The notes under the pieces are model-generated. The model saw nothing but the letters and a program-made list of their open reading frames with translations, was not told the origin of the DNA and did no database searches. The position numbers and the translations under genes are program-made. Shown here one piece after another: positions 1 through 62,782 of a DNA stretch of 64,000 nucleotides; the stretch's first letter is position 1; each line of letters opens with the position of its first letter. The stretch is from a virus (Duplodnaviria > Caudoviricetes): IMG/VR virus record IMGVR_UViG_3300028025_002470, positions 1,709-65,708 of that record. One strand, 5' to 3'.

Positions 1-96
1 AATCCTGATGCTAAGCATTGTCCTCATGTTAAGGACAACAAAAAATGTGCAATGATTACTGATGGGTCTCTATGTAGATTCCATAAGTAATCCCCC

Positions 97-143
97 GAAC
101 TGCCGACCTAAGCGGTCATTCAGATTCGTTATCTGAGCAGTTC
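97..143 (+). ncRNA. Mini tRNA-like intergenic element, copy 1
   Basis: GAACTGC(97-103)/GCAGTTC(137-143) 7-bp stem; inner hairpin GACC-TAAGC-GGTC; T-arm TCAGA-TTCGTTA-TCTGA; no anticodon arm. Confidence 0.7.
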
Positions 144-163
144 CTTAATAAAAACACACACAT

Positions 164-319
164 ATGGAAGATTTAATATGGGTCGAATGTGGCTATTGCC
201 ATGGCGAACCTGTACCGGAAAAAGACAAAGAGTACTGCGCCTGTCCAACCTGTGACGGAGACGGCGGTTATTACATTCCTAACCAAATTTTACAACATGA
301 AAACGTATGCAGTAGTTAA
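164..319 (+). CDS. Small Zn-finger protein, 51 aa, not in ORF track
   Basis: Translates MEDLIWVECGYCHGEP...CPTCDGDGG, two CxxCxG motifs of DnaJ-like type; A/C-rich leader after element 1. Confidence 0.7.
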   Translation: MEDLIWVECGYCHGEPVPEKDKEYCACPTCDGDGGYYIPNQILQHENVCSS

Positions 320-452
320 AAACCCCTATGGAGGGGTTAAGGTATGGCACAAGAATGGTCGTGCCAAGTGGTACACGATTATAAACCACGAAGACCTAGA
401 AACTTATATAGCTAAACTCGTAGCACAAGGCTACACAAAATTTCAACCATGA
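297..452 (+). CDS. Hypothetical early protein (start ATG 297 rather than 189)
   Basis: MKTYAVVKNP..., overlaps the end of the upstream gene and the start of the next (ATGA). Confidence 0.65.
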   Translation: MKTYAVVKNPYGGVKVWHKNGRAKWYTIINHEDLETYIAKLVAQGYTKFQP

Positions 453-604
453 AGCTAGTTTACTCCCGAACCAAGCGTGTTCGCCGGTCCTTCACTATTG
501 AGGACCAAATCTTTAAAAAGTACATCGCATTGTATGGTTTTAAGGAAGCTAAGATAAAGTTCAAACTGCTCAAATTGAGAATCGAATTAAACCAACCGGT
601 ATGA
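449..604 (+). CDS. Hypothetical basic protein, 51 aa
   Basis: MKLVYSRTKRVRRSF..., ATGA overlaps at both ends. Confidence 0.55.
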   Translation: MKLVYSRTKRVRRSFTIEDQIFKKYIALYGFKEAKIKFKLLKLRIELNQPV

Positions 605-690
605 AAGATAAACAACTGCTTCTGATAGTTTTGCTGCTGATAGTGTTTGCCCTTACAATTGCAGGGAATAGTTCACCCGAATGTTGGTAA
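601..690 (+). CDS. Small single-TM membrane peptide, 29 aa
   Basis: MKDKQLLLIVLLLIVFALTIAGNSSPECW; stop lies just before element 2. Confidence 0.55.
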   Translation: MKDKQLLLIVLLLIVFALTIAGNSSPECW

Positions 691-698
691 ACACCCCC

Positions 699-741
699 GA
701 ACTGCAATGGTTGTATACCGGTTCGATTCCGGTAGCAGTTC
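699..741 (+). ncRNA. Mini tRNA-like intergenic element, copy 2
   Basis: GAACTGC-aatggttgta-TACCGG-TTCGATT-CCGGTA-GCAGTTC. Confidence 0.8.
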
Positions 742-759
742 CTCATCAAACCATGATTT

Positions 760-921
760 ATGACTATCGAACTAGACATCCTAGAGCTCATCGACCTCAG
801 AGTTCTATGCAAGGTTAGGCTCATGAAACTACAAGAAACTAACGTGAAAAATGAGGTGCTGAAAGAGATTATTGCAAAGGAGATTGCCAAATTAGAAAAC
901 CTTTTAAACAAATTACAATGA
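760..921 (+). CDS. Hypothetical coiled-coil protein, 53 aa
   Basis: MTIELDILELIDLRVLCK...; ATGA overlap with the gene at 918. Confidence 0.6.
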   Translation: MTIELDILELIDLRVLCKVRLMKLQETNVKNEVLKEIIAKEIAKLENLLNKLQ

Positions 922-1262
922 AGTATGTACACATTTCCACTTGGAACGGCGCAGACATGGACCTCCACAACTACGCCAAGATAGTTGATATTGATCCAGA
1001 ATCCTATCTCGATTCGCTCATTGAACCGGAGTTCGAGGTCAACAAAAAAGAGCGGATGCTAGAGTATTTTACCTTGGATGACGATGGCGAAATTATTGAC
1101 TTTGGTAGGCACACGCTGATTCCATATGAGGGGCATTTTGCGGTGGATATTAGCTGCAATATCAACACGTTTGATATACTGACCAAGGAAGAGTACAAAG
1201 TGGCTAGAAAAGGCTTCTATGACGACGGAGAGTACTACCGTAAGGTTATGAAGATATCCTAA
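918..1262 (+). CDS. Hypothetical acidic early protein
   Basis: 114-aa ORF in the operon; stop just before element 3. Confidence 0.75.
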   Translation: MKYVHISTWNGADMDLHNYAKIVDIDPESYLDSLIEPEFEVNKKERMLEYFTLDDDGEIIDFGRHTLIPYEGHFAVDISCNINTFDILTKEEYKVARKGFYDDGEYYRKVMKIS

Positions 1263-1270
1263 GCACCCCC

Positions 1271-1313
1271 GAACTGCAATGGTTGTACGGACGTTCGATT
1301 CGTCCGGCAGTTC
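1271..1313 (+). ncRNA. Mini tRNA-like intergenic element, copy 3
   Basis: GAACTGC-aatggttgta-CGGACG-TTCGATT-CGTCCG-GCAGTTC; T-stem differs from copy 2 but stays fully paired. Confidence 0.8.
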
Positions 1314-1333
1314 CTCAACAAAAACACAACACC

Positions 1334-1543
1334 ATGACAATTTCATTTGCCGGTACTGAATTATCGATTGAAGCCGTAACTATCCGTGACAAGGATAACG
1401 TCAGCTCTGTATGGTTATCCCCATATGAAACTGATGGGAATCAGGCTTATCCATGCGAACCTGAGAATGCACAGTTTTTTAGGATACTCAAAAAAGACTT
1501 ACATGACAGGGTTAGTGTAGTCGCCGACGTATTCGTTTACTGA
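1334..1543 (+). CDS. Hypothetical early protein (start ATG 1334)
   Basis: MTISFAGTELSIEAV... after an A/C-rich leader; the track start at 1283 lies inside the RNA element. Confidence 0.7.
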   Translation: MTISFAGTELSIEAVTIRDKDNVSSVWLSPYETDGNQAYPCEPENAQFFRILKKDLHDRVSVVADVFVY

Positions 1544-1578
1544 ATTGGATGTAGGGAGGTTCGATTCCTCCCTCAGTA
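1538..1578 (+). ncRNA. Mini tRNA-like intergenic element, copy 4
   Basis: TACTGA-attggatgta-GGGAGG-TTCGATT-CCTCCC-TCAGTA; the 5' strand contains the upstream TGA stop. Confidence 0.8.
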
Positions 1579-1597
1579 CCTCATCAAATCTAGAACC

Positions 1598-1750
1598 ATG
1601 AAATTTATCATTACAAGAACCTACGAGACAATCATCGAGGTGGACGCAGAAGACCTCGAGACAGCAGAAAAGCAGTTGGCTGAGATTGATATTTACGTCG
1701 TTGAATTAGAGCAGTGCTGTGTTGTTGACGAGACAATCACACACGAATAA
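1598..1750 (+). CDS. Hypothetical acidic protein, 50 aa
   Basis: MKFIITRTYETIIEVDAEDLETAE...; fills the gap between elements 4 and 5. Confidence 0.7.
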   Translation: MKFIITRTYETIIEVDAEDLETAEKQLAEIDIYVVELEQCCVVDETITHE

Positions 1751-1790
1751 ACTGAATGGTTGTAAGCAGGGTTCGATTCCCTGCTCAGTT
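1750..1790 (+). ncRNA. Mini tRNA-like intergenic element, copy 5
   Basis: AACTGA-atggttgtaa-GCAGGG-TTCGATT-CCCTGC-TCAGTT. Confidence 0.8.
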
Positions 1791-1810
1791 CCTCATCAAA
1801 ATCATGAACC

Positions 1811-2179
1811 ATGCTTGAAATCATCAAAGAAGCCTACACCGAAGTTGTAGAAGAGTTTAGTATAGAGTTCCGTACCGATAAATACGGCGGCTATTCATTC
1901 CCCTGCGACTACAAAGGCAATGTGCTAGAGTTAAACCCATATGCACAAGCCAATTACGAGAAGTGCCTATCCGGAGAGATTGAGGCTAGTGCGCCGTTTG
2001 TTAGTAGTTTGGTCAGGCATATCAGACATCCTAGGATATGCAGGTGCGAATGCGGTGACGAGTTGCCAATGGAGTGGGATAGCGAAGGTTTGGTTTACTG
2101 CCATTGTGGTAAGACATTCAACACATCAGGTCAGTCTATTCGTCCACGTTCAGAATGGGAAGAAAGATATGATTATTAA
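1811..2179 (+). CDS. Hypothetical Zn-ribbon protein
   Basis: CECG...CHCG motifs near the C-terminus. Confidence 0.75.
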   Translation: MLEIIKEAYTEVVEEFSIEFRTDKYGGYSFPCDYKGNVLELNPYAQANYEKCLSGEIEASAPFVSSLVRHIRHPRICRCECGDELPMEWDSEGLVYCHCGKTFNTSGQSIRPRSEWEERYDY

Positions 2180-2186
2180 TTCCCCC

Positions 2187-2232
2187 GAACTGCGAGGTAT
2201 GACCGAAGTCGGATCGAAACCGACCGCAGTTC
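2187..2232 (+). ncRNA. Mini tRNA-like intergenic element, copy 6
   Basis: GAACTGCG-aggtatgaccgaa-GTCGG-ATCGAAA-CCGAC-CGCAGTTC. Confidence 0.75.
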
Positions 2233-2251
2233 CTTATCAAAACCAAGAACC

Positions 2252-2437
2252 ATGTTTCTATTAATGTTTCCTGATAGGGCGAAAGCCTTAGCTGAATCCT
2301 TCGAACACTTTATGGTTGAGTACACGATTACTCCGCACGACAGCAGGTTTGTTAAGGTCGAATTCGAACCTAACGAATCATCACATTTTGCAGCATTTTA
2401 CGCTGGTACTATTCACTCAAATAAAAACAACACATGA
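2252..2437 (+). CDS. Hypothetical protein
   Basis: 61-aa ORF directly after element 6. Confidence 0.65.
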   Translation: MFLLMFPDRAKALAESFEHFMVEYTITPHDSRFVKVEFEPNESSHFAAFYAGTIHSNKNNT

Positions 2438-2613
2438 CTTTTAAAATCACAGAAAACGAGGGTCGTATTGAGGCTCTTATCGATGGCTCACTTATAGACA
2501 TCATTGGCGGAATAGGAGCGGCTTGTCTTGAAGACGAGCGAGTTATGGAGATTCTTGAAGCCACCCTGCAATTTGTTAAGAGGTATAAATTTGAAAACAC
2601 AAATCTGAACTAA
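2434..2613 (+). CDS. Hypothetical protein, 59 aa, not in ORF track
   Basis: MTFKITENEGRIEALIDG...; ATGA and TAATG overlaps with neighbours. Confidence 0.65.
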   Translation: MTFKITENEGRIEALIDGSLIDIIGGIGAACLEDERVMEILEATLQFVKRYKFENTNLN

Positions 2614-2804
2614 TGAACGAAAACGCACTCAAAGGTGACAGCACCATCGAAATCAAAGAAACGTATTGCGGACCAATGCATGGAGTAGGCTTCTCCAAGA
2701 CCGATGGATATATAATGCCAAAGGAGGAATACTATGCAGAACTCCGCAAGAATGGGTACACAATTGAATTCACTGAAAACGGCGTAATATGCTCTATAAA
2801 GTAA
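2613..2804 (+). CDS. Hypothetical protein
   Basis: Coupled ORF in the early operon. Confidence 0.65.
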   Translation: MNENALKGDSTIEIKETYCGPMHGVGFSKTDGYIMPKEEYYAELRKNGYTIEFTENGVICSIK

Positions 2805-3058
2805 TCGACACCGAAGACGGCTTCGATGTATACACCGAAGACGGAGGCATCGCTAAGGTCAACCTAGACGGCAATCAGTGGGTGACTAGCTACTATCAAG
2901 ACAGAGTTGGAGACCTGCCTGACATATGGATGGCGATGTCACAAGGACGCGTCTATACCAAGGTGTGGGAAGGTACACCAACAAGGCAGGAGATAGTGCA
3001 GGACGCTCTTGAATGGCTGGTTATGTTTGAGGGTGACTTTGAAGAAGGAGAATTTTAA
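2789..3058 (+). CDS. Hypothetical acidic protein
   Basis: 89-aa ORF overlapping the upstream gene. Confidence 0.65.
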   Translation: MLYKVIDTEDGFDVYTEDGGIAKVNLDGNQWVTSYYQDRVGDLPDIWMAMSQGRVYTKVWEGTPTRQEIVQDALEWLVMFEGDFEEGEF

Positions 3059-3067
3059 AACCAATAT

Positions 3068-3220
3068 ATGACAGCAATTATCATTCAGCAGCAAGGCGAA
3101 TCTATGCAGACAATTACCATTGTAAAGGACGGCTCAACTCGGATCATCCTAGTTAAGGATGGCAAGATTCTGAGTACCGACCCTAAAGATATCGAAATTT
3201 GTAAGGTGTTAGTTTCATAG
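3068..3220 (+). CDS. Hypothetical protein, 50 aa, not in ORF track
   Basis: MTAIIIQQQGESMQTITIVKDG..., ends just before a terminator. Confidence 0.6.
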   Translation: MTAIIIQQQGESMQTITIVKDGSTRIILVKDGKILSTDPKDIEICKVLVS

Positions 3221-3228
3221 GTGTTTAT

Positions 3229-3259
3229 CCCCTGACGTTTCTACGTTGGGGGTTTTTTT
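3229..3259 (+). terminator. Intrinsic terminator, TTTCTA-loop family copy 1
   Basis: CCCCTGACG-TTTCTA-CGTTGGGGG followed by T7. Confidence 0.8.
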
Positions 3260-3292
3260 AAATCGGGGACAGGAATACTGAACACAATTACC

Positions 3293-3547
3293 ATGAGAGG
3301 AACAATTGAATATCCCATCAATGGCACACCGCTAGAGATTTTTGTACACGGCGACGTCGTTGGTATATTGCATGACCACGAGGTCTACGTCCACAAGATT
3401 ATCGCCAAACTGAACAAGACAGAAGTATTCCGGTATGAAGACGGCGAAGAGAAGGGTCTGCTGATGATGACCGATATGTCTGAAGAGATACGGAATTTCA
3501 TATCAGCGTATTTAGTAGAATTAAAATTTTATTATGAGCAAGTTTAA
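3293..3547 (+). CDS. Hypothetical protein
   Basis: 84-aa ORF with A/C-rich leader. Confidence 0.65.
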   Translation: MRGTIEYPINGTPLEIFVHGDVVGILHDHEVYVHKIIAKLNKTEVFRYEDGEEKGLLMMTDMSEEIRNFISAYLVELKFYYEQV

Positions 3548-3764
3548 ACAAGTCATGGATTCGATTCAGCAAGGGTTATCGTTTAGCTGGGGGTTCGGGG
3601 GTTTTGGAGAACCAAGAGCAACCGACCTCAGAGACTCCTGCTTTGCCAATGAAGAGCAGAAGGTAGCACACCACCTGCAAATATTCATAACTAGGGCGCT
3701 CTTCGATAGTGGCAGAACGATAAGTTTTATCAAGGAAGGTGAACAAATAAAAATCTATTACTAA
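3534..3764 (+). CDS. Hypothetical protein
   Basis: 76-aa coupled ORF. Confidence 0.6.
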   Translation: MSKFKQVMDSIQQGLSFSWGFGGFGEPRATDLRDSCFANEEQKVAHHLQIFITRALFDSGRTISFIKEGEQIKIYY

Positions 3765-3967
3765 TGGAATTTAACGAATGGATGGCGTACATTTACAGAA
3801 TGAATGGACACCCCGAATTTAAAATCAGAACATATGAGCAGACTTGGAAACATCAAGCTAATATTCCGGACAATCAACGACGGGTTGATGAGGGTGGAAG
3901 CATTGCCCCATGCAGAGAGGGTGAGAACATTACAATCGCTAAGGGAAATAAACGAGGAGTTGTGTGA
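3764..3967 (+). CDS. Hypothetical protein
   Basis: TAATG coupling; overlaps the next ORF extensively, so the 3' part is uncertain. Confidence 0.4.
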   Translation: MEFNEWMAYIYRMNGHPEFKIRTYEQTWKHQANIPDNQRRVDEGGSIAPCREGENITIAKGNKRGVV

Positions 3968-4031
3968 TTATGTAATCGATATGGTAAAGTATGTAGAAAA
4001 AGAGAAGAATGAAACAAGAAAAGTTCAATGA
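3834..4031 (+). CDS. Hypothetical helical protein (probable start ATG 3834)
   Basis: MSRLGNIKLIFRTIND..., overlaps the next gene start. Confidence 0.55.
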   Translation: MSRLGNIKLIFRTINDGLMRVEALPHAERVRTLQSLREINEELCDYVIDMVKYVEKEKNETRKVQ

Positions 4032-4338
4032 GTTGATAGCAATGTCTCCGGTCAAATTAGACAAGAGCAGACGGAAAGAAGTCATACACGCCAAGAGCGC
4101 CATTATAAACGTAATGAGGCGCTATTACTCAACCACGACGGTTGAGTTGGCTCAGATGCTAGACATTCACCATTCGACGGTGATACACCACACAGATGAC
4201 CATGCTAGTAGGTACAGGTTTGAGAGTGCATATGCCGACCTCTATGACAGGATGGTAAGGCATATCATAAAGACGGATGGCATCGTGGATAGCAAGAGTA
4301 TGATTGAATTAATTAGAGAAAATCTAGCGGTAAAATAA
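4009..4338 (+). CDS. DnaA C-terminal-like helix-turn-helix DNA-binding protein
   Basis: TTVELAQMLDIHHSTVIHH resembles the DnaA domain IV signature (xDHxTVxH). Confidence 0.65.
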   Translation: MKQEKFNELIAMSPVKLDKSRRKEVIHAKSAIINVMRRYYSTTTVELAQMLDIHHSTVIHHTDDHASRYRFESAYADLYDRMVRHIIKTDGIVDSKSMIELIRENLAVK

Positions 4339-4349
4339 CCCTTGTGCTT

Positions 4350-4449
4350 TGTCGCCGTGGCTGGGTAAGATGTAGCTCTACTGCGTTTCGATCCGCGAAT
4401 AAATCAGTCGATAAGTAGAGCAGGCGGGTGGCAACTATCCAGAAGTTGC
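4350..4449 (+). ncRNA. Structured non-coding RNA of unknown class
   Basis: No ORF; stems GCTCTACT(4375-4382)/AGTAGAGC(4414-4421), TGTCGCC/GGTGGCA, GCAACT/AGTTGC. Confidence 0.45.
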
Positions 4450-4453
4450 AAAT

Positions 4454-4569
4454 ACCGAGAGTGGCGGAAGGATAGGGGAGTCACCCTGTCTTGGTAGACG
4501 CTATACGTAGATAACAACCATTAATTAATAGGGCGTGTTATCGTGCAGGTTCGAATCCTGCCTCTCGGT
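4454..4569 (+). tRNA. Aberrant tRNA-like gene with no assignable anticodon
   Basis: Acceptor (A)CCGAGAG/CTCTCGG(T); Leu-type D-arm TGGCGGAA...TGGTAGACGC; canonical T-arm GCAGG-TTCGAAT-CCTGC; hairpin inserted in the D-loop; oversized anticodon region; no CCA. Confidence 0.7.
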
Positions 4570-4593
4570 CACAGGTTTTTCATGGTTCATAAC

Positions 4594-4622
4594 GCCCGAT
4601 GTTTCTACATTGGGCTCTTTTT
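4594..4622 (+). terminator. Intrinsic terminator, TTTCTA-loop family copy 2
   Basis: GCCCGATG-TTTCTA-CATTGGGC then TCTTTTT. Confidence 0.75.
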
Positions 4623-4645
4623 AAAATCACAAACACATTAAGATT

Positions 4646-4927
4646 ATGACACGAGCAGAACAAAAAACAAACAAGGAAAGACAGCTACTAAAGGAACTCA
4701 TCGATAAGATGTTTGAAATAGCAGGACATGATGTTAAGTTTGAAGATGTAGAAGGTCGTACTGATGAGTGGTATCGACAATACACCATGACTGAGGCCCA
4801 AAACAAGGAATGGAGAGAATGGGGAACTAAACACATCAAAAAGAAGAAACGCTATTATTCAAAGATAGCTGCACGTGAAATGGCTTGGCTTGATCTCTAT
4901 TGTGGACTTAAAATTGAAAACAAATAA
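4646..4927 (+). CDS. Hypothetical protein
   Basis: 93-aa ORF with a good leader. Confidence 0.75.
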   Translation: MTRAEQKTNKERQLLKELIDKMFEIAGHDVKFEDVEGRTDEWYRQYTMTEAQNKEWREWGTKHIKKKKRYYSKIAAREMAWLDLYCGLKIENK

Positions 4928-4928
4928 C

Positions 4929-5117
4929 ATGGAAAAGACCGCAGTTGAATGGTTAGAATGGTTGTTTAAAGAAGGCATACTCAATCAAAAATCTTTTGAA
5001 ATAGCCAAACAAAAGGAGAAGGAGCAGATAAGAATAGCTTTCACGGATGGTCATTGGGATGGGCAGTTTAAGAAATTAACATCAGAGGAATATTACAATG
5101 AGCAATATGGAAAGTAA
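4929..5117 (+). CDS. Hypothetical protein (start ATG 4929)
   Basis: MEKTAVEWL...AKQKEKEQI...EYYNEQY, a pattern I associate with Bacteroidota phage small proteins. Confidence 0.7.
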   Translation: MEKTAVEWLEWLFKEGILNQKSFEIAKQKEKEQIRIAFTDGHWDGQFKKLTSEEYYNEQYGK

Positions 5118-5433
5118 AGCATGTACTAAATGTAGGGCAGTGAAACCACTCTCTGATTTTTGTGTAAAGACGTACTACAGGGGTGGTTATAACAACTACT
5201 GCAAGAGATGTCAGGCTTTGTATGTTAGGAAGACTGTAGACAAGGCACACAAGGAAGGCAAGAAGACCTGTAATACCTGCAATGAGGAGCGTGAGTATAG
5301 GTTCTTTTCAAGGAGTAAATCCGGTAAAGATGGTTACGTGGTAAGGTGTAAGCTCTGTCAGGCTGATGCAAAAAAGAAACCCTTGGCGGATATTAATTAC
5401 GCCGAATTCTATTACCCAATACGATTAGATTGA
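5098..5433 (+). CDS. Tandem Zn-ribbon protein
   Basis: Two repeats of CxxC...F...CKxC. Confidence 0.7.
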   Translation: MSNMESKACTKCRAVKPLSDFCVKTYYRGGYNNYCKRCQALYVRKTVDKAHKEGKKTCNTCNEEREYRFFSRSKSGKDGYVVRCKLCQADAKKKPLADINYAEFYYPIRLD

Positions 5434-5615
5434 AAGCTATAATAAAATTCAACAGCGGTAATCTGGCTATACTATGCTCTAAGTGCAAGGCTATAATCAA
5501 AACAGGTCATAAGTTTAACAAAGAAGAAGAGGCATTTGCTTTGGGCAAAGGCCACCTGCCTCCACAGTATTGTCGTACTTGTAGTACTAAAGAAGAAGAA
5601 AAACTAAACCAATAA
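5430..5615 (+). CDS. Small Zn-finger protein
   Basis: CSKC...YCRTC. Confidence 0.65.
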   Translation: MKAIIKFNSGNLAILCSKCKAIIKTGHKFNKEEEAFALGKGHLPPQYCRTCSTKEEEKLNQ

Positions 5616-5616
5616 T

Positions 5617-6336
5617 ATGTATTTACAGGCAGTAACAGTTTGCGTAAACTATTCAGACTTTTTGGCTCAGACAATAGCCAACAACAAGAACATCTTCAAT
5701 CACTGGCTTATCATAACTACTCCAGATGATAAGAAGACACAAAGGCTTTGTCATCATCACAACGTTGAGTGTTTAACCACCAATGTATTCACGGAGCAGG
5801 GAGATCCATTTAACAAAGCCAGAGGTATCAACATTGGTCTTGATTACATGACCAAGCATGATTGGGTATTACATCTTGATGCGGACATTTACTTACCGCC
5901 ACTTACAAGAGGTATACTAGAAAGGATATCCTTGAACGATAAGAACATCTATGGTATAGACAGGATGATGTGTCCAACCTTTGAAGAATGGAATAAGTAT
6001 GTTAAGAACCCCGAGCCGTCACATTCTGGATGGGTTTATATACACGGTAATGCATTCCCATTTGGCGTAAGGATTGGCGAGTACATGTCTGAGGGTTACG
6101 AGCCTATTGGTTTCTTTCAGCTCTGGAATCCTAACGGTTCGGGGGTAAAGAGGTATCCAGAAACACACGGCGCAGCAGACAGAACCGATGTTCAATTCGC
6201 CAAGAAGTGGTCTAGAGCTAACCGCGTACTCATACCAGAGATCATCGGAATACATCTCGACTCAGAGAACAGCACCGTAGAGGAGATGGGTAAGAACTGG
6301 AATGGCAGGAGGACAAAAGAGTTTGGCGGATACTAG
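5617..6336 (+). CDS. Glycosyltransferase, GT-A (GT2-like) fold
   Basis: FNKARGINIG, WVLHLDADI (DxD motif), GFFQL, HGAADRTD. Confidence 0.8.
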   Translation: MYLQAVTVCVNYSDFLAQTIANNKNIFNHWLIITTPDDKKTQRLCHHHNVECLTTNVFTEQGDPFNKARGINIGLDYMTKHDWVLHLDADIYLPPLTRGILERISLNDKNIYGIDRMMCPTFEEWNKYVKNPEPSHSGWVYIHGNAFPFGVRIGEYMSEGYEPIGFFQLWNPNGSGVKRYPETHGAADRTDVQFAKKWSRANRVLIPEIIGIHLDSENSTVEEMGKNWNGRRTKEFGGY

Positions 6337-6413
6337 TAAACGTGTGGATAAAAAACGAAAGAAAAATTTGGTATGTAATATGTAGAGCCATATAAAAAGC
6401 GGATCTTTGCATT

Positions 6414-6653
6414 ATGAAATACGACTACGTCAAGGACGTATTAAGATATAATGGGAAGTCATACCCACTATCAGACTACCGAGCGTGGCTGATAAGAAAT
6501 CATGAATCCCTATGTACAAACCACTTTGTTAAAGCAATCCGCTCCAAGGGGAAGACTGTCTTCACATTTGACTGGCAGTCTATCTTCTTGAGGGCAGAAG
6601 AGTATCAATTCCTAAACGATTATATAAATGAAAGCAATTCTTCAAGCTTATGA
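6414..6653 (+). CDS. Hypothetical protein
   Basis: 79-aa ORF after an AT-rich promoter-like gap. Confidence 0.65.
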   Translation: MKYDYVKDVLRYNGKSYPLSDYRAWLIRNHESLCTNHFVKAIRSKGKTVFTFDWQSIFLRAEEYQFLNDYINESNSSSL

Positions 6654-7309
6654 ATAGGTATTATGTATATGCGCATTATAAGTTAGACGGAGATGGTACT
6701 ATCCCGTTTTATATCGGTAAGGGTAGTAGGAAGAGGTGCAAGTCGAAATGCAGAAGTAAGTATTGGACTGATATTGTTTCTAAGCACGGACTATCTGTAG
6801 AAATTCTTAAGGATGGAATGTCAGAGGAAGACGCATTCATCTATGAGATACAGATGATATCATATTATAAATCACTTGGCGGATGCGAGTGTAATTTTAC
6901 TATAGGCGGAGACGGTGTACGTGTTGATAGGAGGTGGTGGAATGACAAGATTTCACAATCTCTCCAAAACATATTTAGGCCATCTGGTCCAGATAGTAAG
7001 TCATACAAAAATGTACTTACTAAGGAGGAGTTGACTCACCTATATGTAGAGAAGGGATTATCATCTGTAGAAATAGCTGAACTAAAAGACCTGTCCCCAC
7101 CAACAGTATGCGCTAGGCTTGTTGACTTTGGGATTCAGACCAGAAAACCATCCAGAAAACCCATACCAGTATACTGCATAAACAATAACAAAAAGTACGA
7201 CAGCTTAATGGACGCAGCTAAGGACTTAGGTGTGCACAGGGAAAATATTAAGAAAGTACTACAAGGCAAATACAGTCAGACAGGAGGTTACAAATTTAAA
7301 TCAATATAA
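6650..7309 (+). CDS. GIY-YIG-type free-standing homing endonuclease with C-terminal NUMOD1-like HTH
   Basis: YYVYAH...FYIGKG..R, conserved E and N, C-terminal YDSLMDAAKDLG...GGYKF. Confidence 0.8.
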   Translation: MNRYYVYAHYKLDGDGTIPFYIGKGSRKRCKSKCRSKYWTDIVSKHGLSVEILKDGMSEEDAFIYEIQMISYYKSLGGCECNFTIGGDGVRVDRRWWNDKISQSLQNIFRPSGPDSKSYKNVLTKEELTHLYVEKGLSSVEIAELKDLSPPTVCARLVDFGIQTRKPSRKPIPVYCINNNKKYDSLMDAAKDLGVHRENIKKVLQGKYSQTGGYKFKSI

Positions 7310-7312
7310 AGT

Positions 7313-7876
7313 ATGAAAAGTTTATTAAAAAAGCTTCACGAGTTCAATTCAAAAGTTAAGCCAGTTGTAAAGGGTTCAGATAACCCGTATTTCAAATCGA
7401 AATTTGCTAGTCTAGATTCTATTCAGCACCACATTGCACCACACCTAAAGGAGTTTGGATTGGTAATAACACAAGCAAGTGTTGTTATTAATGACCATCC
7501 ATATGTAGAGTCTACAGTTTGGGACGTTGATACTGGTGAGTGTATAAAATCGGTATTCCCTGTTGTAGTCAACAAACCGACTGCACAAGATTATGGTAGC
7601 GCTGTTTCTTACGCTAAGCGATACTCTATTACTGGTCTATTAAATCTTATAGTAGCTAACGAGGACGATGACGCCAATACGGTAAGTGTAAACAACCCTA
7701 CAAACGATCTTCCCAAGGACAAGTACGATCTGATGATTAAGTACATCGCCGATGGTAAGATTAAAGAGGTGGAGTCAGCCATTAAGAAGTACACCCTGAC
7801 CGATGTCCAGAGCAAAGAGATCTCTACATTGATTAACAAGGCGAAGTCACAAGCCATAACCAAAGCAGCGAAATGA
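7313..7876 (+). CDS. erf: ERF-family single-strand annealing protein
   Basis: NPYFKSKFASL and GSAVSYAKRYSITGLLNL..EDDDA signature. Confidence 0.9.
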   Translation: MKSLLKKLHEFNSKVKPVVKGSDNPYFKSKFASLDSIQHHIAPHLKEFGLVITQASVVINDHPYVESTVWDVDTGECIKSVFPVVVNKPTAQDYGSAVSYAKRYSITGLLNLIVANEDDDANTVSVNNPTNDLPKDKYDLMIKYIADGKIKEVESAIKKYTLTDVQSKEISTLINKAKSQAITKAAK

Positions 7877-8847: not shown

Positions 8848-9041
8848 AAGACCTTAGAAAAACCTTCGCCGTCTGGAGAATGGTAAGAGATAGCAGTCAA
8901 GGCATTGACACTTGGCAGTGGCAGAAGAACATGAGGGAAACAGACAAGGTGGTGTCTCTTGTTATCGACGAGCTAATCAAGGAGGGAAGGGTAGAGTACT
9001 GGGAACAAATTAAAGAGAAATTATATGATACGACTGAGTGA
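8814..9041 (+). CDS. Hypothetical protein
   Basis: Coupled ORF. Confidence 0.6.
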   Translation: MEKSIQPEAVLEDLRKTFAVWRMVRDSSQGIDTWQWQKNMRETDKVVSLVIDELIKEGRVEYWEQIKEKLYDTTE

Positions 9042-9414
9042 TTTACAGAAGGCAATGAAGGGACAATTTATATGGGACCATGCAGGCGTAAGACCAATGC
9101 AGGTGCAGGAGGTTTATGAGGGTAATAAAGAGCTTGCAAGGACCATCTTTGTAGGGCTAGCTGACATGTATGGGTTTAGTTCCGCAGATGTCATGAACCA
9201 CATTGATTGTGGTTATGATTCATATAGGAATAAGATTCAGATATTCAGAGAATACTACAAGGTTGGCAGGCAGCGAGAAGCAGATGGTGCGCTGAGAGAT
9301 TACGATGACGCCATTACTAAGTTCTATGTTAAGACCTGCCTTTGCCTAAACTGTATCACATACAGCCTTAACAGGAATCAGTATATCAAACTGGAAAACT
9401 ATCTGAATGTATGA
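9025..9414 (+). CDS. Hypothetical protein, possible HTH
   Basis: 129-aa coupled ORF. Confidence 0.65.
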   Translation: MIRLSDLQKAMKGQFIWDHAGVRPMQVQEVYEGNKELARTIFVGLADMYGFSSADVMNHIDCGYDSYRNKIQIFREYYKVGRQREADGALRDYDDAITKFYVKTCLCLNCITYSLNRNQYIKLENYLNV

Positions 9415-12255: not shown

Positions 12256-12464
12256 AAGAAAACATAAAGAGGGTATTAACAAACCATTCGCAATCATCCG
12301 CAGAGGGGCTATTGATGCTCGTTGGCGGAACGCTAGATCAGTTACATGAAGCACTTGATGAGCTTATTGAAGAGGGTTGGCTAACCACATCAACCACAGA
12401 CTGGATGGATATGAAGGTTACTGTATATAAAAAGAAGAAGCCAAAGCAGGCAAAATTATTTTAA
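12252..12464 (+). CDS. Small winged-helix-like protein
   Basis: LHEALDELIEEGWL pattern. Confidence 0.55.
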   Translation: MKENIKRVLTNHSQSSAEGLLMLVGGTLDQLHEALDELIEEGWLTTSTTDWMDMKVTVYKKKKPKQAKLF

Positions 12465-12504
12465 CAATTACTAATTGATAGGACGTTTGAATATTATTAA
12501 ACCT

Positions 12505-57531: not shown

Positions 57532-57762
57532 TTAAAATAACTTTCCCTCTAATTCCTCGGGTAGAATTTTGATATTATGCTCCATGCCAGACTTGGTAAT
57601 TATCTTCGTAGCCAGCATGTCCACCTCTTCGTTTGCGTCATTAATATACGAAACCTCTAGTGGTAGGAACGACTCGATCTGGAATGGGTTAATCCATAAC
57701 TCATTAAAGTATAATCTACCGTCCTCAACAAAGAACTCTTCTAGCTTTGCAAACCTACTCAT
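57532..57762 (-). CDS. Hypothetical acidic protein
   Basis: 76-aa coupled ORF. Confidence 0.65.
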   Translation of the reverse strand: MSRFAKLEEFFVEDGRLYFNELWINPFQIESFLPLEVSYINDANEEVDMLATKIITKSGMEHNIKILPEELEGKLF

Positions 57763-58126
57763 AAAATATCCTCCAGTTTTGTTTCTTGTCTTCGATTCTA
57801 TTTACATAAACACTCTCGGTACCATCATTAGCCATGATGTACCAGTCGTTTAAAGGTACGATATAAATGGCAAATATGTCTACCTCTTCTTTTGTATATT
57901 TCTGATTCTTGTATTTTCTTAGCCTAGCACGGTAGGTTTTATTTGTCATGGCCGTTATGCACTTGATCTGGACCTTCTTCATGACTCCCTTTACTTCAGC
58001 TACCCTGTCGTAGGCAGAAAAGCTTGTGACAGGTTTAGAGATAGATATCCCCCGAGCCCCAGCCTCGATGTCGAAGATCATCTCCGCCAGATTAGATATG
58101 TCATTAATATTGGATCTCGTTAGCAT
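57755..58126 (-). CDS. PD-(D/E)xK endonuclease, homing-endonuclease-like (start ATG 58126)
   Basis: AEMIF...SKP....YD...KVQIK...YTKEEVDIFAIY. Confidence 0.75.
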   Translation of the reverse strand: MLTRSNINDISNLAEMIFDIEAGARGISISKPVTSFSAYDRVAEVKGVMKKVQIKCITAMTNKTYRARLRKYKNQKYTKEEVDIFAIYIVPLNDWYIMANDGTESVYVNRIEDKKQNWRIFYE

Positions 58127-58592
58127 ATTGTATTGGTAGGAATGCGTTAAGTCTATTAGACACACCTCCGTTGCAGGTTTTTTGTGTAATTGACTCTCTG
58201 GTATCGAACTCAAAAACAAACTCTCCTCTGTCATCAGTAACCCTCCAAATGAGAATAACCCTCTCGGAGAGAAGGTTAACGATTATATAAAATGGTGTCC
58301 TAAGAGATTCGCTTACTTTAGCGCCGTTGACTAACTTCTCATAGGTTATCAGATAACCTTTCTTTAAATACTCTCTGGTAAGTGGTACGCTGCCAGCCAT
58401 CTCCCTGCACTTGATCTCTCCAACACCACAGACCTTGTAGTACCCATTCACCAGATGCGCTATGATCACATCAGAGTGTGAGTCCTTTTGCGCCATCTCT
58501 ACGATCTTATAACCCTTGGACTCGATGATGTCCTGAGTGCGCCTTTGGTGACTGATAAAGGTTTTACCCCTCTCTGTTTCACAGTCCAACAT
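58104..58592 (-). CDS. PD-(D/E)xK-fold nuclease-like protein
   Basis: SDVII...GVGEIKCR, YLITYEKL. Confidence 0.6.
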   Translation of the reverse strand: MLDCETERGKTFISHQRRTQDIIESKGYKIVEMAQKDSHSDVIIAHLVNGYYKVCGVGEIKCREMAGSVPLTREYLKKGYLITYEKLVNGAKVSESLRTPFYIIVNLLSERVILIWRVTDDRGEFVFEFDTRESITQKTCNGGVSNRLNAFLPIQYANEIQY

Positions 58593-59739: not shown

Positions 59740-59798
59740 AACTGATATTTTGCGCCAAGGTAACCAATTCTAGCTAGTTTTATCCCAAATTTCAAACT

Positions 59799-59957
59799 AT
59801 GCAAGAAAAAGTTCTGGGTGTTCTCCGTCACATCCTCACATTCGCCGGAGGTTTTGTAGTAGCTAAAGGCTGGATAGATGAAAGCTCTGTACAAGAAATC
59901 GTTGGAGCACTTGCCACACTGGTTGGCTCTATCTGGTCAGTAGCTTCTAAGAAGTAA
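59799..59957 (+). CDS. Small two-TM holin-like protein, 52 aa, not in ORF track
   Basis: MQEKVLGVLRHILTFAGGFVVAKGWIDESSVQEIVGALATLVGSIWSVASKK. Confidence 0.75.
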   Translation: MQEKVLGVLRHILTFAGGFVVAKGWIDESSVQEIVGALATLVGSIWSVASKK

Positions 59958-59959
59958 GT

Positions 59960-59982
59960 AAAGGGGGTTATAAGCCCCCTTT
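59960..59982. terminator. Hairpin between convergent genes
   Basis: AAAGGGGGTT-ATA-AGCCCCCTTT. Confidence 0.6.
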
Positions 59983-60468
59983 CCAATGCTTGTTATATCT
60001 TTCGTAATAAAACGTCAGATCCATGGTGTTGTCGTCATAATAACTTGACACAACGTCACTCTTAAAGGCGGATCCAATATTCTCGAACAGGGTAGTTGTA
60101 ATTACGTTATATACACTAAACACAGACTTAAGCCAAGTATAGTTACCACCCCTGATTACGCCAGCCTCAACAAAGATTACATTATCATAGTGTGGTAGAG
60201 TCAATAATTTCTCTAGAGCTTTATACTGAAAGGGCGTAACATCCTCGTCTGGGTAGGGTACATCGATACAGATGATAGGACACATCTCCCCTTCAAAAGA
60301 AAGCTCATGAGCCAGATGCATGGCAGCAGTGGCTGAGTAGTCTGGAGAGACCATAACCACTAAACTATTCCCAGCGTGTACGTCGGGGTACTTCTCTTTA
60401 AACTTTTCCGCCAAGTCCTGAATAGCATCAAACTCGGCCTCTCGGTCGATAAGTAGTTCTCTTCTCAT
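59968..60468 (-). CDS. Phosphoribosyltransferase-fold protein
   Basis: VIFVEAGVIRGGN resembles a divergent PRPP-binding loop. Confidence 0.6.
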   Translation of the reverse strand: MRRELLIDREAEFDAIQDLAEKFKEKYPDVHAGNSLVVMVSPDYSATAAMHLAHELSFEGEMCPIICIDVPYPDEDVTPFQYKALEKLLTLPHYDNVIFVEAGVIRGGNYTWLKSVFSVYNVITTTLFENIGSAFKSDVVSSYYDDNTMDLTFYYERYNKHWKGGL

Positions 60469-61115
60469 TTGTATTCGTTATTGCCTTTATCTATTAGGGT
60501 ATCGTTTTTTCTTTTTAATATACCTGCACGCCTTGCTTCAGATATGCGCTTCTTTGTTTCTTCCGAAACAACCCTACCTTTGTTAGAATTTGATATTTTC
60601 TGTTTAACATCTTCTGGCAATATTTTACCAGTGTTGAATTCACGAAGCTTCTTCTTTGTTTCTTCTGATAACACACGACCAGTATGAATTTGGCTTAGCC
60701 TTTCTTTAAAAGAATCAGACCTTTTCTGCCCTTTTAGTTTTTTAACTCTCTTGTCTATTGTTTCTTGAGATTGTTTTTTGCCTAAATGAGAGTTTCTTAT
60801 CTTCAACCTAGTCTCTTCTGAACGAATCATACCAGAAATTCCTTGACCACCAATTGTACAATTCAAACCCTTTTTGAAACAGTTTAGCTTATCTATCCAC
60901 TCTATTTCTAATTTATTCAGGTCACTAAGCTCTGCAGTTTGGATCAACTCAAAGGTATGATTTTCCCATCCGTATTTTAATAAAGACCTATAAAGCCTTG
61001 TTTGGTTCTTACAGTTTGCGTACTTATATTTTCGCTGCCTTTCATTTATATCAACTGTTTGTCCTACATATATCTTACCCGAAGGATTTGTTATTTTATA
61101 AATATATCCTATCAT
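60465..61115 (-). CDS. GIY-YIG homing endonuclease with NUMOD3 repeats
   Basis: GYIYKITNPSGKIYVGQT; several SEET..K repeats. Confidence 0.92.
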   Translation of the reverse strand: MIGYIYKITNPSGKIYVGQTVDINERQRKYKYANCKNQTRLYRSLLKYGWENHTFELIQTAELSDLNKLEIEWIDKLNCFKKGLNCTIGGQGISGMIRSEETRLKIRNSHLGKKQSQETIDKRVKKLKGQKRSDSFKERLSQIHTGRVLSEETKKKLREFNTGKILPEDVKQKISNSNKGRVVSEETKKRISEARRAGILKRKNDTLIDKGNNEYK

Positions 61116-61120
61116 AAAAG

Positions 61121-62782
61121 CTATTTTGAATACTCGAATTGTAGAATTTTGCCCACGATATCAGACCTGTGGTTTTCTTTAAGTTTAATCCATTCAATGC
61201 CTTCGATCTTTTTACTCAGCTCGATAGCATAGGACAGACCGTTGTACTCGTCCTTAATGTCCTTCTGTTCGTTATCGCCATTGATAACGATCTTTCCGTT
61301 CTTTCCTAGTCTGGTCAGAACCGCCAGCATCTGAGCCTTTGTAAGATTCTGAGCCTCCTCAACAATAAGTATATCATCAATAGTTTTTCCTCTTATAAAC
61401 TGGACAGGGTAGGCCTTAATAAGTTCGGGGGCGATCTTGTCACTACACTTAGAAACATTCTCAGCAAAGGCTTCCAAGTAAGGATTGAACTTATCATCCA
61501 TCCCTCCGGGTAGAAAACCCATAGATGCGCCGACTTCAATAGTGGCCCTAGTAACAAGTATCTGGGTGACTTGTCTTCTCTGTAATAAGTCTATTGCGGT
61601 TTGCGCACTAACCAAAGATTTGCCACAGTTGTGTGTTACGGTAAAGTCTTCTAGGATAAATAGATTATCTCCATCAAGTCTGAATCCATAATACCAATCT
61701 ACAGTATCCTTTTCTATGACAACACCTGTGTGGGTCTGGTCTTTAAATTCAGAACCTATCTCATTCCTCTTTCTTTCAATCTTACATGGTATGAGATCTT
61801 CTGGTACTATTGTAATCCTATGGACTTCGCAAGAGTAGACAGAGCCGTCTTTTCTTTTCATCGTAGCTATCTTAGGCTTTACGCTAGTTTTATAACCTAA
61901 AGACCTACTAATAAATACTATGTCGTATGCAAGCTTTTTATCTTTTAGAGTCAATTCATAATACTTCCCTATCTTGCTGTAGTGCCCGTCACTATCCAAC
62001 ATTCCGGAAAGTAAACTTATCCTCTGTTCCTTAGAACTATATTTATAAATATCTGGAACAACCTTCTCTTCTATCTTAGATACATTTGTTACGCCAAATA
62101 AATCCTTAACAATATTATTAATCGACTCACTAGTGGGTAGTGACCATTTATATTTTGCTGGAAGCTTTATTGCGCCAAGGTCTATCAGGTAATTTTCTAT
62201 CTCAAAGTCAGATGTGGTAATAATACGGAAGTTTGACTTATCACCGTCGCCAAGCCAAAGTCCCATATAGTATGGGTCTACAGGAAGGTCCTTTTGAGGA
62301 AACTCAATACAAGGAGATATATATCCTTTATACTGTTTTCTTCTCTTTACAGACATGTACTGCTCTATAGTAAGATTAACAGTAGTTGTCTTCTTTTCGT
62401 GAATAGGAGGCCTAGTGTAGTCAAAAGCCCTTTTCCCGTCAACTGTAATCCTGTGGTAAACTTCAGACTCTACTCGCTTAAGAGAAAGGGTATGATTACT
62501 ATTGACTCTGTAATCCATGCCTCGCTTCTGCTTTACAATATACATCTGGTCCTGACCGGTAAAAAGCTCCAAAACGTTTCTTGGCGTAGAGTCTATTCCC
62601 ATTAACTGATCGCCAACTACTACGTCTTCAGCGTTTTTAAAGGAACCATCGTACATCAAAACCTTAGTGCCTGCGCCTAGACAACCAGCCCTTCCGGTAA
62701 TGATAACGATCTGATTGTCTAGGATAAGCTTCTTGGCTGTCTTCTGTTCCTCATTTAGCTGAACCTTGAACTTTTCTTTCAT
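61121..62782 (-). CDS. phoH: PhoH-family ATPase interrupted by an intein
   Basis: GRAG|CGKS Walker A, GFLPG, FIRGKT, VEEAQN, LTRLG, GDNEQKD, ENHRS. Confidence 0.92.
   Translation of the reverse strand: MKEKFKVQLNEEQKTAKKLILDNQIVIITGRAGCLGAGTKVLMYDGSFKNAEDVVVGDQLMGIDSTPRNVLELFTGQDQMYIVKQKRGMDYRVNSNHTLSLKRVESEVYHRITVDGKRAFDYTRPPIHEKKTTTVNLTIEQYMSVKRRKQYKGYISPCIEFPQKDLPVDPYYMGLWLGDGDKSNFRIITTSDFEIENYLIDLGAIKLPAKYKWSLPTSESINNIVKDLFGVTNVSKIEEKVVPDIYKYSSKEQRISLLSGMLDSDGHYSKIGKYYELTLKDKKLAYDIVFISRSLGYKTSVKPKIATMKRKDGSVYSCEVHRITIVPEDLIPCKIERKRNEIGSEFKDQTHTGVVIEKDTVDWYYGFRLDGDNLFILEDFTVTHNCGKSLVSAQTAIDLLQRRQVTQILVTRATIEVGASMGFLPGGMDDKFNPYLEAFAENVSKCSDKIAPELIKAYPVQFIRGKTIDDILIVEEAQNLTKAQMLAVLTRLGKNGKIVINGDNEQKDIKDEYNGLSYAIELSKKIEGIEWIKLKENHRSDIVGKILQFEYSK
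61628..62683 (-). mobile_element. Intein (352 aa) with LAGLIDADG endonuclease
   Basis: Starts CLGAGTKV, block B VNSNH, GLWLGDG and LSGMLDSDG motifs, ends VTHN followed by Cys. Confidence 0.93.

Follow-up and report, generated by a model that had tools for sequence, protein, structure and literature searches.

An eight-nucleotide DNA word, YCCCGARC, was analyzed in a virus of the Caudoviricetes (Duplodnaviria), IMG/VR record IMGVR_UViG_3300028025_002470. The stretch that was analyzed, hereafter the window, is 64,000 nucleotides (nt) long and covers bases 1709-65708 of the 65,708-bp record, which is rated 97% complete; coordinates are those of the window unless the record is named. The results support the conclusion that the word is a real, non-palindromic signal under selection which codon use does not explain. 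They show a positively selected, lineage-specific, cis-acting word of the phage clade to which this genome belongs, present at about 1 copy per 1-2 kb on both strands.

The window holds 51 copies of YCCCGARC, 37 on the + strand and 14 on the - strand, close to the original prediction of about 35 and about 14. Dinucleotide-preserving shuffles (n=100) averaged 2.96 copies and peaked at 8, and none of them reached 51 copies. The word had been put at about ten-fold over-represented; the enrichment itself stands, and its size is larger, about 17-fold. The 9-mer CYCCCGARC occurs 41 times (31 on + and 10 on -) compared with 0.70 in the shuffles, so that most copies (41/51) do extend to it, and the + coordinates first listed (92, 463, 8044 and onward) correspond to the starts of this 9-mer. 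The whole record has 39 copies on + and 14 on -, and the pattern read backwards, which served as the control, gives 2 and 0. For k = 7-10, YCCCGARC and its extensions head the k-mer ranking of the genome. None of the four 8-mers covered by YCCCGARC turned up as a word in the literature collection searched.

The word was refined in a pool of 417 kb from seven related genomes, this one included, in which the favoured strand is called major and the other minor. The 191 major and 82 minor copies in this pool give C-Y-CCCGA-N-C-Y-G, where N is mostly A or G. Positions 2-6 (CCCGA) and 8 (C) are strict, and at position 1 C is commoner than T. At position 7, the major/minor counts are 111/36 for A, 80/46 for G, 21/25 for T and 21/9 for C. 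In the flanks, position -1 is C in 85% of copies, +1 is Y in 84% and +2 is G in 60%. The resulting 11-mer CYCCCGARCYG is found 92 times on the major and 24 times on the minor strand of the pool, where simple arithmetic leads to an expectation of about 1 per strand.

Coding content was controlled by two shuffles of the whole record (n=300 each). Exchange of synonymous codons left a mean of 5.85 and a maximum of 11 copies on the + strand, 4 of these being intergenic copies that were not shuffled, and a mean of 2.41 and a maximum of 7 on the - strand. Shuffling of codon order left 5.19 and 1.0 copies, respectively. The - strand on its own is therefore about 6-fold above the synonymous-codon null (14 vs 2.4). 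In the whole record, the copies fall antisense to genes in frames 0/1/2 at 10/9/13 and sense at 2/7/8, and 4 are intergenic. It had been proposed that the copies lie inside genes in different frames and form a non-palindromic signal beyond codon use; with all sense and antisense frames occupied and the excess surviving both shuffles, both proposals are borne out.

A share of the copies is linked to peptide sequence. The tripeptide Pro-Glu-(Pro/Leu) is encoded by 8 of the 17 sense copies, three of them within one Pro/Glu-rich stretch, and because some minor-strand copies encode it, peptide sequence may drive part of the minor-strand excess. A local peptide-linked cluster of three minor-strand copies (TPEP, TPEP and APEP) lies within 210 bp at 46276-46486 (-). 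These copies are what could be cited for regarding the whole word as a by-product of composition, codon pairs or a repeated peptide, but this is extremely improbable: the dinucleotide, synonymous-codon and codon-order shuffles all fall far short, every frame is used, the backwards control is nearly empty, the intergenic copies are the most polar of all (39:4 in the seven genomes), and distant relatives of similar coding content lack the word.

The strand preference was examined against the two arms of the genome. Rightward genes occupy 1-16089 and comprise small early open reading frames (ORFs) and a recombination/replication module. This module includes an Erf-like annealase, a RecE-like exonuclease, a winged-helix replication protein encoded at 9411-9992 and a zinc-ribbon/Toprim/DnaB primase-helicase, together with a RusA-like resolvase, endonuclease VII, a dCTP deaminase and a dNMP kinase. 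Leftward genes run from 16167 on and include lysis genes, a gene for a polyvalent protein of 3352 amino acids (aa), virion proteins, the portal and the large terminase. The proteins scanned, which represent part of the ORFs, showed no DNA polymerase, RNA polymerase or methyltransferase.

The major:minor ratio in this genome is 13:5 in the early (+) arm and 26:9 in the late (-) arm, in accordance with the earlier claim that the + bias holds in both oppositely transcribed arms. Similarly, the seven genomes give 89:34 in the early arms and 102:48 in the late arms, for a total of 191:82, and all four combinations of strand and arm are enriched for the word. The early-arm sense orientation has the highest density, with 89 copies in about 121 kb. 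Thus, independence of the strand bias from transcription direction is supported. The favoured strand, sense to the early arm and antisense to the late arm, is preferred by 2-3:1, and by 39:4 where the sequence is non-coding. Because this strand changes from sense to antisense between the arms, ease of coding cannot explain the bias. The mean GC skew, as read off the skew profile, is about +0.10 in the early arm and about -0.09 in the late arm; composition therefore tracks gene direction and gives no sign of a replication bias across the genome by which mutation could produce the asymmetry. A phage-specific promoter was rejected as the identity of the word, given 102 antisense and 48 sense copies in the late arms and the location of the window's sense copies inside genes.

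The individual placements below are all YCCCGARC matches in the window, based on the pattern scan and the gene calls. Apart from the four + copies that head tRNA-like elements, which are described with these elements, the + copies of the early arm are mostly sense within genes. TCCCGAAC lies at 464-471 in the small early ORF 449-604, at 8045-8052 in the RecE-like exonuclease gene (7873-8847) and at 13785-13792 in the dNMP kinase gene; CCCCGAGC at 6009-6016 in ORF 5617-6336 and at 8339-8346 in the exonuclease gene, in a column shared by 5 of 7 aligned genomes; and TCCCGAGC at 12563-12570 in the small ORF 12517-12660. Another TCCCGAGC on +, at 14463-14470, is intergenic, 19 nt past the stop of 13715-14443. 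The - strand copies of this arm are antisense: CCCCGAAC at 3593-3600 in the early ORF 3534-3764, at 6137-6144 in ORF 5617-6336 and at 13172-13179 in the dCTP deaminase gene, TCCCGAGC at 8629-8636 in the exonuclease gene (same aligned column in 3 of 7 genomes) and TCCCGAAC at 11214-11221 in the primase-helicase gene.

Within the late arm, the + copies are antisense to the genes that they occupy. The gene of the 3352-aa polyvalent protein carries CCCCGAGC at 19437-19444 and 23862-23869, TCCCGAAC at 19878-19885 and 20931-20938, and CCCCGAAC at 21854-21861, 25172-25179 and 25899-25906, all on +, as well as one sense copy on - that encodes TPEP (TCCCGAGC, 26175-26182). Further antisense + copies are CCCCGAAC at 28261-28268 and TCCCGAGC at 28641-28648 (ORF 28134-29591), TCCCGAGC at 29690-29697 (ORF 29594-30268), CCCCGAAC at 30955-30962 (ORF 30268-31065; same column in 3 of 6 genomes), CCCCGAGC at 35652-35659 (ORF 35545-36159) and CCCCGAGC at 37387-37394 (ORF 37108-37815; same column in 4 of 6 genomes). 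The virion protein gene 31065-34790 has CCCCGAGC on + at 32144-32151, antisense, and CCCCGAAC on - at 33663-33670, sense. ORF 38637-41963 has a sense TCCCGAAC on - at 40680-40687, with the next + copy 31 bp away; the antisense + copies of this ORF are CCCCGAGC at 40719-40726 and 41741-41748 and TCCCGAGC at 41118-41125.

Beyond it, CCCCGAAC at 42943-42950 (+) is antisense in ORF 41965-43161, and TCCCGAAC at 44058-44065 (-) is sense in ORF 43264-44097. ORF 45485-46396 contains an antisense CCCCGAAC on + at 45539-45546 (same column in 4 of 7 genomes), and its Pro/Glu-rich stretch contains two sense copies on - that encode TPEP, TCCCGAAC at 46276-46283 and TCCCGAGC at 46312-46319. The sense copy TCCCGAAC at 46479-46486 (-), in ORF 46435-46725, encodes APEP. 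A single copy, CCCCGAAC at 49432-49439 (+), is found in the 4.6-kb genome-specific gene 46727-51322. Antisense + copies follow in ORF 51319-51624 (CCCCGAGC, 51473-51480), the portal gene (CCCCGAGC, 52206-52213; TCCCGAAC, 53357-53364) and the large terminase gene (TCCCGAAC, 54001-54008 and 54424-54431, the latter in the same column in 3 of 7 genomes), and the terminase gene also has a sense CCCCGAAC on - at 55724-55731. The + copy CCCCGAGC at 58050-58057 is intergenic by the gene calls, with an alternative - strand ORF (57755-58234) overlapping it. The last copy, CCCCGAAC at 61423-61430 (-), is sense in ORF 61121-62782.

The seven genomes show a further preference for the ends of genes. Of the 273 copies, 230 are intragenic. 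Within 12 nt past the stop of a same-strand ORF lie 42 of the 191 major copies, where 9 are expected; the minor copies show 4 of 82 against 3 expected. Most of the intergenic copies (39:4) lie in the early arm, sense to that arm. Dispersed repressor sites (stoperators) and the TF1 sites of SPO1 offer comparisons here. YCCCGARC could be the binding word of a phage-encoded regulatory or architectural protein, in one version an orientation-dependent roadblock to rightward transcription that would shut off the early operon and keep the late arm free of read-through. The clustering past stops and the polar early intergenic copies would fit such a role, as would the small first early gene at record bases 74-409, which is kept at 25-40% identity in all clade members examined and weakly matches a 'transcriptional regulator' family. 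The intragenic majority, however, includes copies in the sense direction of early genes, the orientation does not flip with transcription as that of stoperators does, the orientation that would block late transcription is itself enriched in the late arms (48 copies), and no binding protein was identified. We consider a binding word rather unlikely.

Many of the copies past early stops belong to a second conserved feature, a tRNA-like intercistronic element of about 60 nt. Its order is a stop codon, 1-6 nt, a C-run, and a 7-bp closing stem that starts with GAAC; then follow about 10 nt of linker, a hairpin with a 7-nt loop (often GGTTCGAnTCC), and the 3' strand of the stem with one C. Downstream, an A/C-rich leader precedes the next ATG. 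The topology is that of the tRNA acceptor/T-arm minihelix. Four elements of the window are headed by the word, in each case CCCCGAAC on the + strand. The element at 85-149 (E 3.4e-7, fold z -4.96), a 7-bp closing stem stacked on a T-arm-like hairpin, is headed by the copy at 93-100, which is 2 nt past an early ORF stop. Those at 687-747 (E 2e-12, fold z -3.39) and 1259-1319 (E 2.6e-11, fold z -2.90) are headed by the copies at 695-702 and 1267-1274. The element at 2175-2238 (E 2.9e-13, fold z -3.69) carries the copy at 2183-2190, 3 nt past the stop of ORF 1811-2179. Two weaker + strand copies of the element have no word, one at 1749-1797 that lacks the C-run and hence the word (E 0.0025) and a partial one at 1539-1577 (E 0.023). 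The element search also found one at record bases 1271-1337.

Compensatory changes occur in 8 of 11 pairs among 24 copies of the element, for which the closing stem was a selection criterion and the inner hairpin was not. Searching 624 kb with a covariance model yielded 45 matches (E up to 1), of which one duplicates a window copy, and all were in word-bearing genomes and on the favoured strand. Below E 1e-3 there are 36 distinct matches, located in the early region at 4-6 per genome and present in all seven clade genomes searched; inclusion of weaker matches raises the number per genome. No matches were obtained in three distant relatives or in the Terrimonas rubra locus described below. ARAGORN called no tRNA genes, and an Rfam scan of window positions 1-5000 returned no family at the gathering score, the best being mascRNA (E 4.5). 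The elements may punctuate the early transcript for RNase P/Z-type processing.

The exact word is carried by 29 of 38 elements and missing from 9, and a hairpin partner was sought for the word copies outside elements and none was found; element and word are therefore separable. A shared reader of the two may exist. The word could also be read on RNA, as a processing, decay or termination signal on rightward transcripts that is tied to the tRNA-like elements. Its position at the head of 29 of the 38 elements between early cistrons, its density peak in the early-arm sense orientation and its placement directly past stop codons point in this direction. Such a signal is nevertheless very unlikely, as the word is enriched in all strand/arm combinations, including late mRNAs and the antisense of early genes, 9 of the 38 elements do without it, and the copies outside elements are unstructured.

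The distribution of the word among phages was compared at the level of two proteins. Relatives with a terminase 51-79% identical to that of this phage all carry the word, with the majority always on the strand opposite the terminase gene. Full-length relatives (60-68 kb) have 43, 30, 44, 28, 40, 47 and 37 copies, and partial records have 35 copies in 37.6 kb and 30 in 54 kb, with controls of 0-8 in both groups. Four relatives whose terminase is at most 43% identical have 0-1 copies. Similarly, 19 loci with a primase-helicase at least 59% identical hold 174/86 copies, or 0.81 per kb, whereas 70 loci at or below 41% hold 8/2, or 0.013 per kb, which is the control level; in this set, no loci lay between 41% and 59%. 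Over all comparisons, each relative with a terminase at least 51% or a primase-helicase at least 57% identical carries the word. An order-2 Markov model ranks the word family first among 8-mers (z 18-35) in the window's record and in 6 of 6 further full-length word-bearing records, and the word-free relatives have no substitute 8-mer (best z 9-12, ignoring rows that hold N).

Record GC content across the clade is 37.5-45%, with one 22-kb clade locus at 51%, and the DNA of the relatives is about 68-70% identical to the window's record over the 10-23 kb that can be aligned. A scan of the viral collection for the element together with the word gave 25 matching stretches. Those with homologues of the phage proteins are clade members; the six without homologues are GC-rich, and neither strand of any of these loci has more than 3 copies of the word. 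In all, at least 20 related contigs were examined and all of them have the word, which is absent from the next relatives. These results indicate that the word follows the phage lineage rather than any sampled host. The modules of the clade are mosaic: one relative has a terminase 78% and a primase 63% identical to those of this phage, and another has a terminase at 51-52%, a primase at 72-75% and a portal at 81%. These mosaic identities imply that clade members recombine often.

To measure the conservation of individual sites, the orthologues of at least 150 aa in the seven genomes were codon-aligned. Among 80 site-columns with the word, 64 are unique to one genome, and 9, 4, 2 and 1 are shared by two, three, four and five genomes, respectively. 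A site is retained at the aligned position of a partner genome in 80 of 516 cases (15.5%), compared with 6.9% for other aligned 8-mers under the same rule. Together, the higher retention and the many unique columns indicate that individual sites are under some purifying selection and that density is upheld mainly through turnover. Genome-specific genes have 0.59 and core genes 0.85 copies per kb, a difference that is not significant (P 0.16).

The host of the phage was approached through relatives and leader sequences. The sequence is present in 24 sequencing runs labelled subsurface, lake, freshwater and soil. Records of 115 cultured phages have a related terminase, all at most 33% identical, and their named hosts (Flavobacterium, Cellulophaga, Bacteroides, Tenacibaculum, Maribacter) belong to genera of the Bacteroidota. 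Terrimonas rubra is the sole bacterial chromosome found with a related structural module. Its 22-kb locus, with terminase, portal, capsid and neighbour genes 26-40% identical to those of this phage, is probably a prophage or remnant of a related lineage; the word and the tRNA-like elements are both absent from it. A Shine-Dalgarno-like 4-mer precedes 6 of 50 genes of at least 100 aa in the whole record, and leader positions -15 to -9 of these genes are 38-58% A and 4-12% G. Such A-rich, G-poor leaders are typical of Bacteroidota. We infer a host of Bacteroidota type, and the hosts probably do not use Shine-Dalgarno sites.

The first role named in the original prediction was a host Chi-like site, in which the word would guard permuted linear or rolling-circle phage DNA from an AddAB/RecBCD-type nuclease. 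Some properties of the word suit such a site. The complement, GYTCGGGR, is G-rich as Chi sites are, both orientations are enriched with one more so, and positional conservation is lacking (64 of 80 columns unique). Records flagged for end repeats begin at different map positions, which suggests circular assembly of permuted genomes, and the ends of such genomes can fall anywhere. The bacterial screens, which covered 401 + 151 + 301 genomes (853 in total), do not bear this possibility out. On the Terrimonas rubra chromosome, the word occurs 92/86 times against 97/103 for the control. No enrichment was found in 401 genomes spread evenly over the phylum of this bacterium, where the best ratios to the control were 3-6 fold and density peaked at 0.34 per kb, in a genome that is also rich in the backwards control. 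The six bacterial genomes with the best figures contain 2-31 copies of the 11-mer in 3.7-4.4 Mb, which is chance and shows no flank preference, compared with 6-17 copies on the major strand alone in phage records of 37.6-66 kb.

In 151 genomes of the Terrimonas rubra family the 9-mer is near the control, and in 301 genomes of a second phylum, reached via another weak terminase match, the 11-mer has 0-12 copies, again near the control. Polarity within contigs was absent in the two bacterial genomes listed in full, in which the strands are mixed. The phage density of 0.8 per kb exceeds that of every genome screened. The phage proteins scanned showed no RecBCD/AddAB-type enzyme. Since the word is unenriched in the 853 genomes, the host-Chi reading is unsupported and must be rated highly unlikely, and a host Chi, KOPS-like or uptake word is argued against among the genomes searched, the true host possibly lying outside this sample. 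A DNA uptake sequence was rejected in addition because about 1 copy per kb would be needed in the host, against a maximum of 0.34 per kb in the 401 genomes, reached in one with a high control. The other roles named in the original prediction, a polar translocation or packaging signal, a protein-binding site and a methylation site, all stay candidates.

Spacing was considered next to replication. The mean spacing of major-strand copies is 1.5-3.4 kb in the seven genomes, and it is weakly under-dispersed in 5 of 7 (coefficient of variation (CV) 0.64-0.84) and over-dispersed in 2 of 7, on which grounds regular spacing was rejected. Even cover is not obligatory, since word-free gaps of 6-16 kb occur in 4 of 9 genomes. 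The primase-helicase (9961-11697, +), which combines a zinc ribbon with Toprim and DnaB-type domains, would be the reader if the word served lagging-strand priming by the T7 gp4-like enzyme of this clade, with one-directional (rolling-circle) replication favouring one orientation. Its zinc ribbon has four invariant cysteines, and the boundary of the word coincides with that of the primase clade (at least 59% vs at most 41% identity). Sites on both strands at the spacing given above, slightly more even than random in 5 of the 7 genomes, would also suit priming, and the complement reads G-Y-T, which matches the GTT/GCT triplets of the T4 primase; a primer would start with R-C. Yet known primases of this kind read three bases, and we know of no primase word of 8-11 nt. 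In addition, the 6-16 kb gaps speak against priming, the mapping from word to primer is flexible and hence weak evidence, the match with the primase clade is confounded by descent, and no genome-wide GC skew remains once gene direction is allowed for. A priming word is accordingly quite unlikely.

The single most likely mechanism, which we put forward tentatively and as well short of probable, is that the copies are nick sites. The word would be read on DNA, in a strand-specific manner, by a phage-encoded enzyme, whose likeliest action would be site-specific single-strand nicking like the localized single-strand interruptions of T5, tf/LUZ24-like and phiKMV-like phages. The word would be fitted wherever this is cheap: in genes by codon choice, in all frames, and in spacers just past early stops, where tRNA-like elements begin with GAAC, so that the stem would already supply this part and an upstream C-run alone would be needed. 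According to PMC3517423, TACTRTGMC occurs 14 times in phage tf, whose genome has convergent arms, always on the top strand and always nicked, relatives of tf have variant words at other positions, and T5 and phiKMV-like phages have nick consensus words too, the function of the nicks being described there as unknown. PMC3592412 reports that small phage nucleases (HNH) can be site- and strand-specific nickases with sites of 3-7 bp, one of them GARCA-like.

Two nucleases of this phage were examined as candidates. A 162-aa protein with a PD-(D/E)XK fold (58104-58592, -) is kept in every word-bearing genome examined, and its sequence specificity is putative. It has a conserved D...E-x-K motif, and its structure model (predicted local distance difference test (pLDDT) score 86.5) weakly matches Hjc-type resolvases, the SPARDA nuclease domain, DpnI and a tRNA-splicing endonuclease (E 3e-4 to 2e-2). 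A single-sequence search with this protein gave no matches, and an alignment-based search found it in clade contigs alone (17 of 17 loci). It comes in addition to the RusA-like resolvase and, in this genome, endonuclease VII. The other candidate nickase, a conserved 86-aa HNH endonuclease (62751-63011, -), was rejected by its distribution, which shows no link to the word: 76 of its 80 best loci, with HNH proteins 62-75% identical, are in unrelated phages that have 31 word copies against 20 for the control in 832 kb, and the 4 clade loci alone have the word.

Several points weigh against nicking. Known nick words lie on one strand only, and here 27-30% of the copies are on the other strand, which is itself enriched (14 vs 2.4). 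The data are assembled contigs, in which molecule ends cannot show. The HNH candidate fails the distribution test, with the word at about control level around most of its relatives, and the clade-restricted PD-(D/E)XK protein folds like Holliday-junction resolvases or generic nucleases and not like a known nickase. The replication/recombination module and many small ORFs are clade-specific, and no single gene stands out; because the word accompanies all clade-specific genes, the reader cannot be named from co-occurrence. Finally, nicking does not explain why the density should reach 1 per kb. That the word serves something not yet thought of is unlikely.

Other genes of the window were noted alongside. 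The 3352-aa polyvalent protein (18079-28137, -) has an ART-PolyVal ADP-ribosyltransferase domain and DUF7178. According to bioRxiv 10.1101/2020.03.07.982082, a crAss-like virion RNA polymerase prefers single-stranded templates, and early transcripts have no common upstream motif. Since the DFDxD motif is absent, the 3352-aa protein is not evidently a virion RNA polymerase of the crAss type, and this identity was rejected in favour of the ART-PolyVal domain. Three homing-endonuclease-like genes at 6650-7309 (+), 16985-17656 (-) and 60465-61115 (-), one HNH-type/NUMOD and two GIY-YIG with NUMOD motifs, lack counterparts in all eight related genomes used for comparison and look like recent selfish insertions. 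The genome-specific gene 46727-51322 (-) encodes a 1531-aa protein with arabinofuranosidase-like and carbohydrate-binding domains, which is probably a receptor-binding or depolymerase protein. The dCTP deaminase gene (12899-13453, +) is absent from most relatives, with a 39%-identical match in one, and the adjacent dNMP kinase gene (13715-14443, +) is kept across the clade. This pairing is a hint of an altered nucleotide metabolism or of a modified base; among the proteins scanned, which are part of the ORFs, no modification enzyme was recognized.

A broader proposal, doubtful as it stands, is that YCCCGARC is a virus-encoded, genome-wide polar 'self' word of 8-11 nt at about 1 per kb, under ongoing selection and read by the phage's own unrecognised enzyme. 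Possible readers are a primase whose template specificity is extended and a phage equivalent of the Chi/helicase-nuclease system that tells own from host DNA. If true, a virus would with this 'self' word possess a kind of chromosome-architecture signal known until now from cells. In bacteria, Chi, KOPS and uptake sequences came to light as over-represented polar words, and to our knowledge the only comparable phage cases are the unexplained nick words of T5 and tf. Because the word is in all clade contigs examined and absent from the next relatives and from the 853 bacterial genomes screened, this dense and sharply bounded word forms a clean comparative system for finding the reader protein and its purpose. 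It can also be used as a practical marker for members of an uncultured lineage, and the linked elements suggest tRNA-style punctuation of early transcripts.

The word can be set beside several known systems. Like the Chi sites of RecBCD/AddAB, which are asymmetric words of 5-8 nt, it would be useful in both orientations with one preferred and occurs in many copies without positional conservation; Chi, however, is a property of the host chromosome, and this word follows the phage lineage. Cluster A mycobacteriophages likewise have dozens of copies of an asymmetric word genome-wide under a fixed orientation rule, and these stoperators are protein-bound, mostly intergenic and oriented by transcription in each arm, whereas here genes contain 230 of the 273 copies and both arms share one orientation. 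The T7 gp4 and T4 gp61 primase sites are read on one strand by a zinc-ribbon primase of the phage, and such an enzyme is encoded here; those sites have three bases and need no enrichment, in contrast to the 8-11 specified bases of this word. The linked elements resemble tRNA-like small RNAs and tRNA punctuation (mascRNA) in their 7-bp acceptor-like stem on a T-arm-like hairpin with a 7-nt loop and in their location between cistrons, and differ in having no D or anticodon arm.

The closest likeness is to the nick words of tf/LUZ24-like, T5/BF23 and phiKMV-like phages. As described in PMC3517423 and PMC10644984, these are short, non-palindromic, phage-specific consensus words that are far over-represented, favour the same strand across convergently transcribed arms and are kept in related phages at differing positions. 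The density here is 3-4 times higher than that of the nick words, 27-30% of the copies are on the other strand, and the host range differs, being putatively Bacteroidota. Overall, YCCCGARC is a lineage-specific polar DNA signal that is best compared with the nick words of phages and is linked to tRNA-like elements without an Rfam match.

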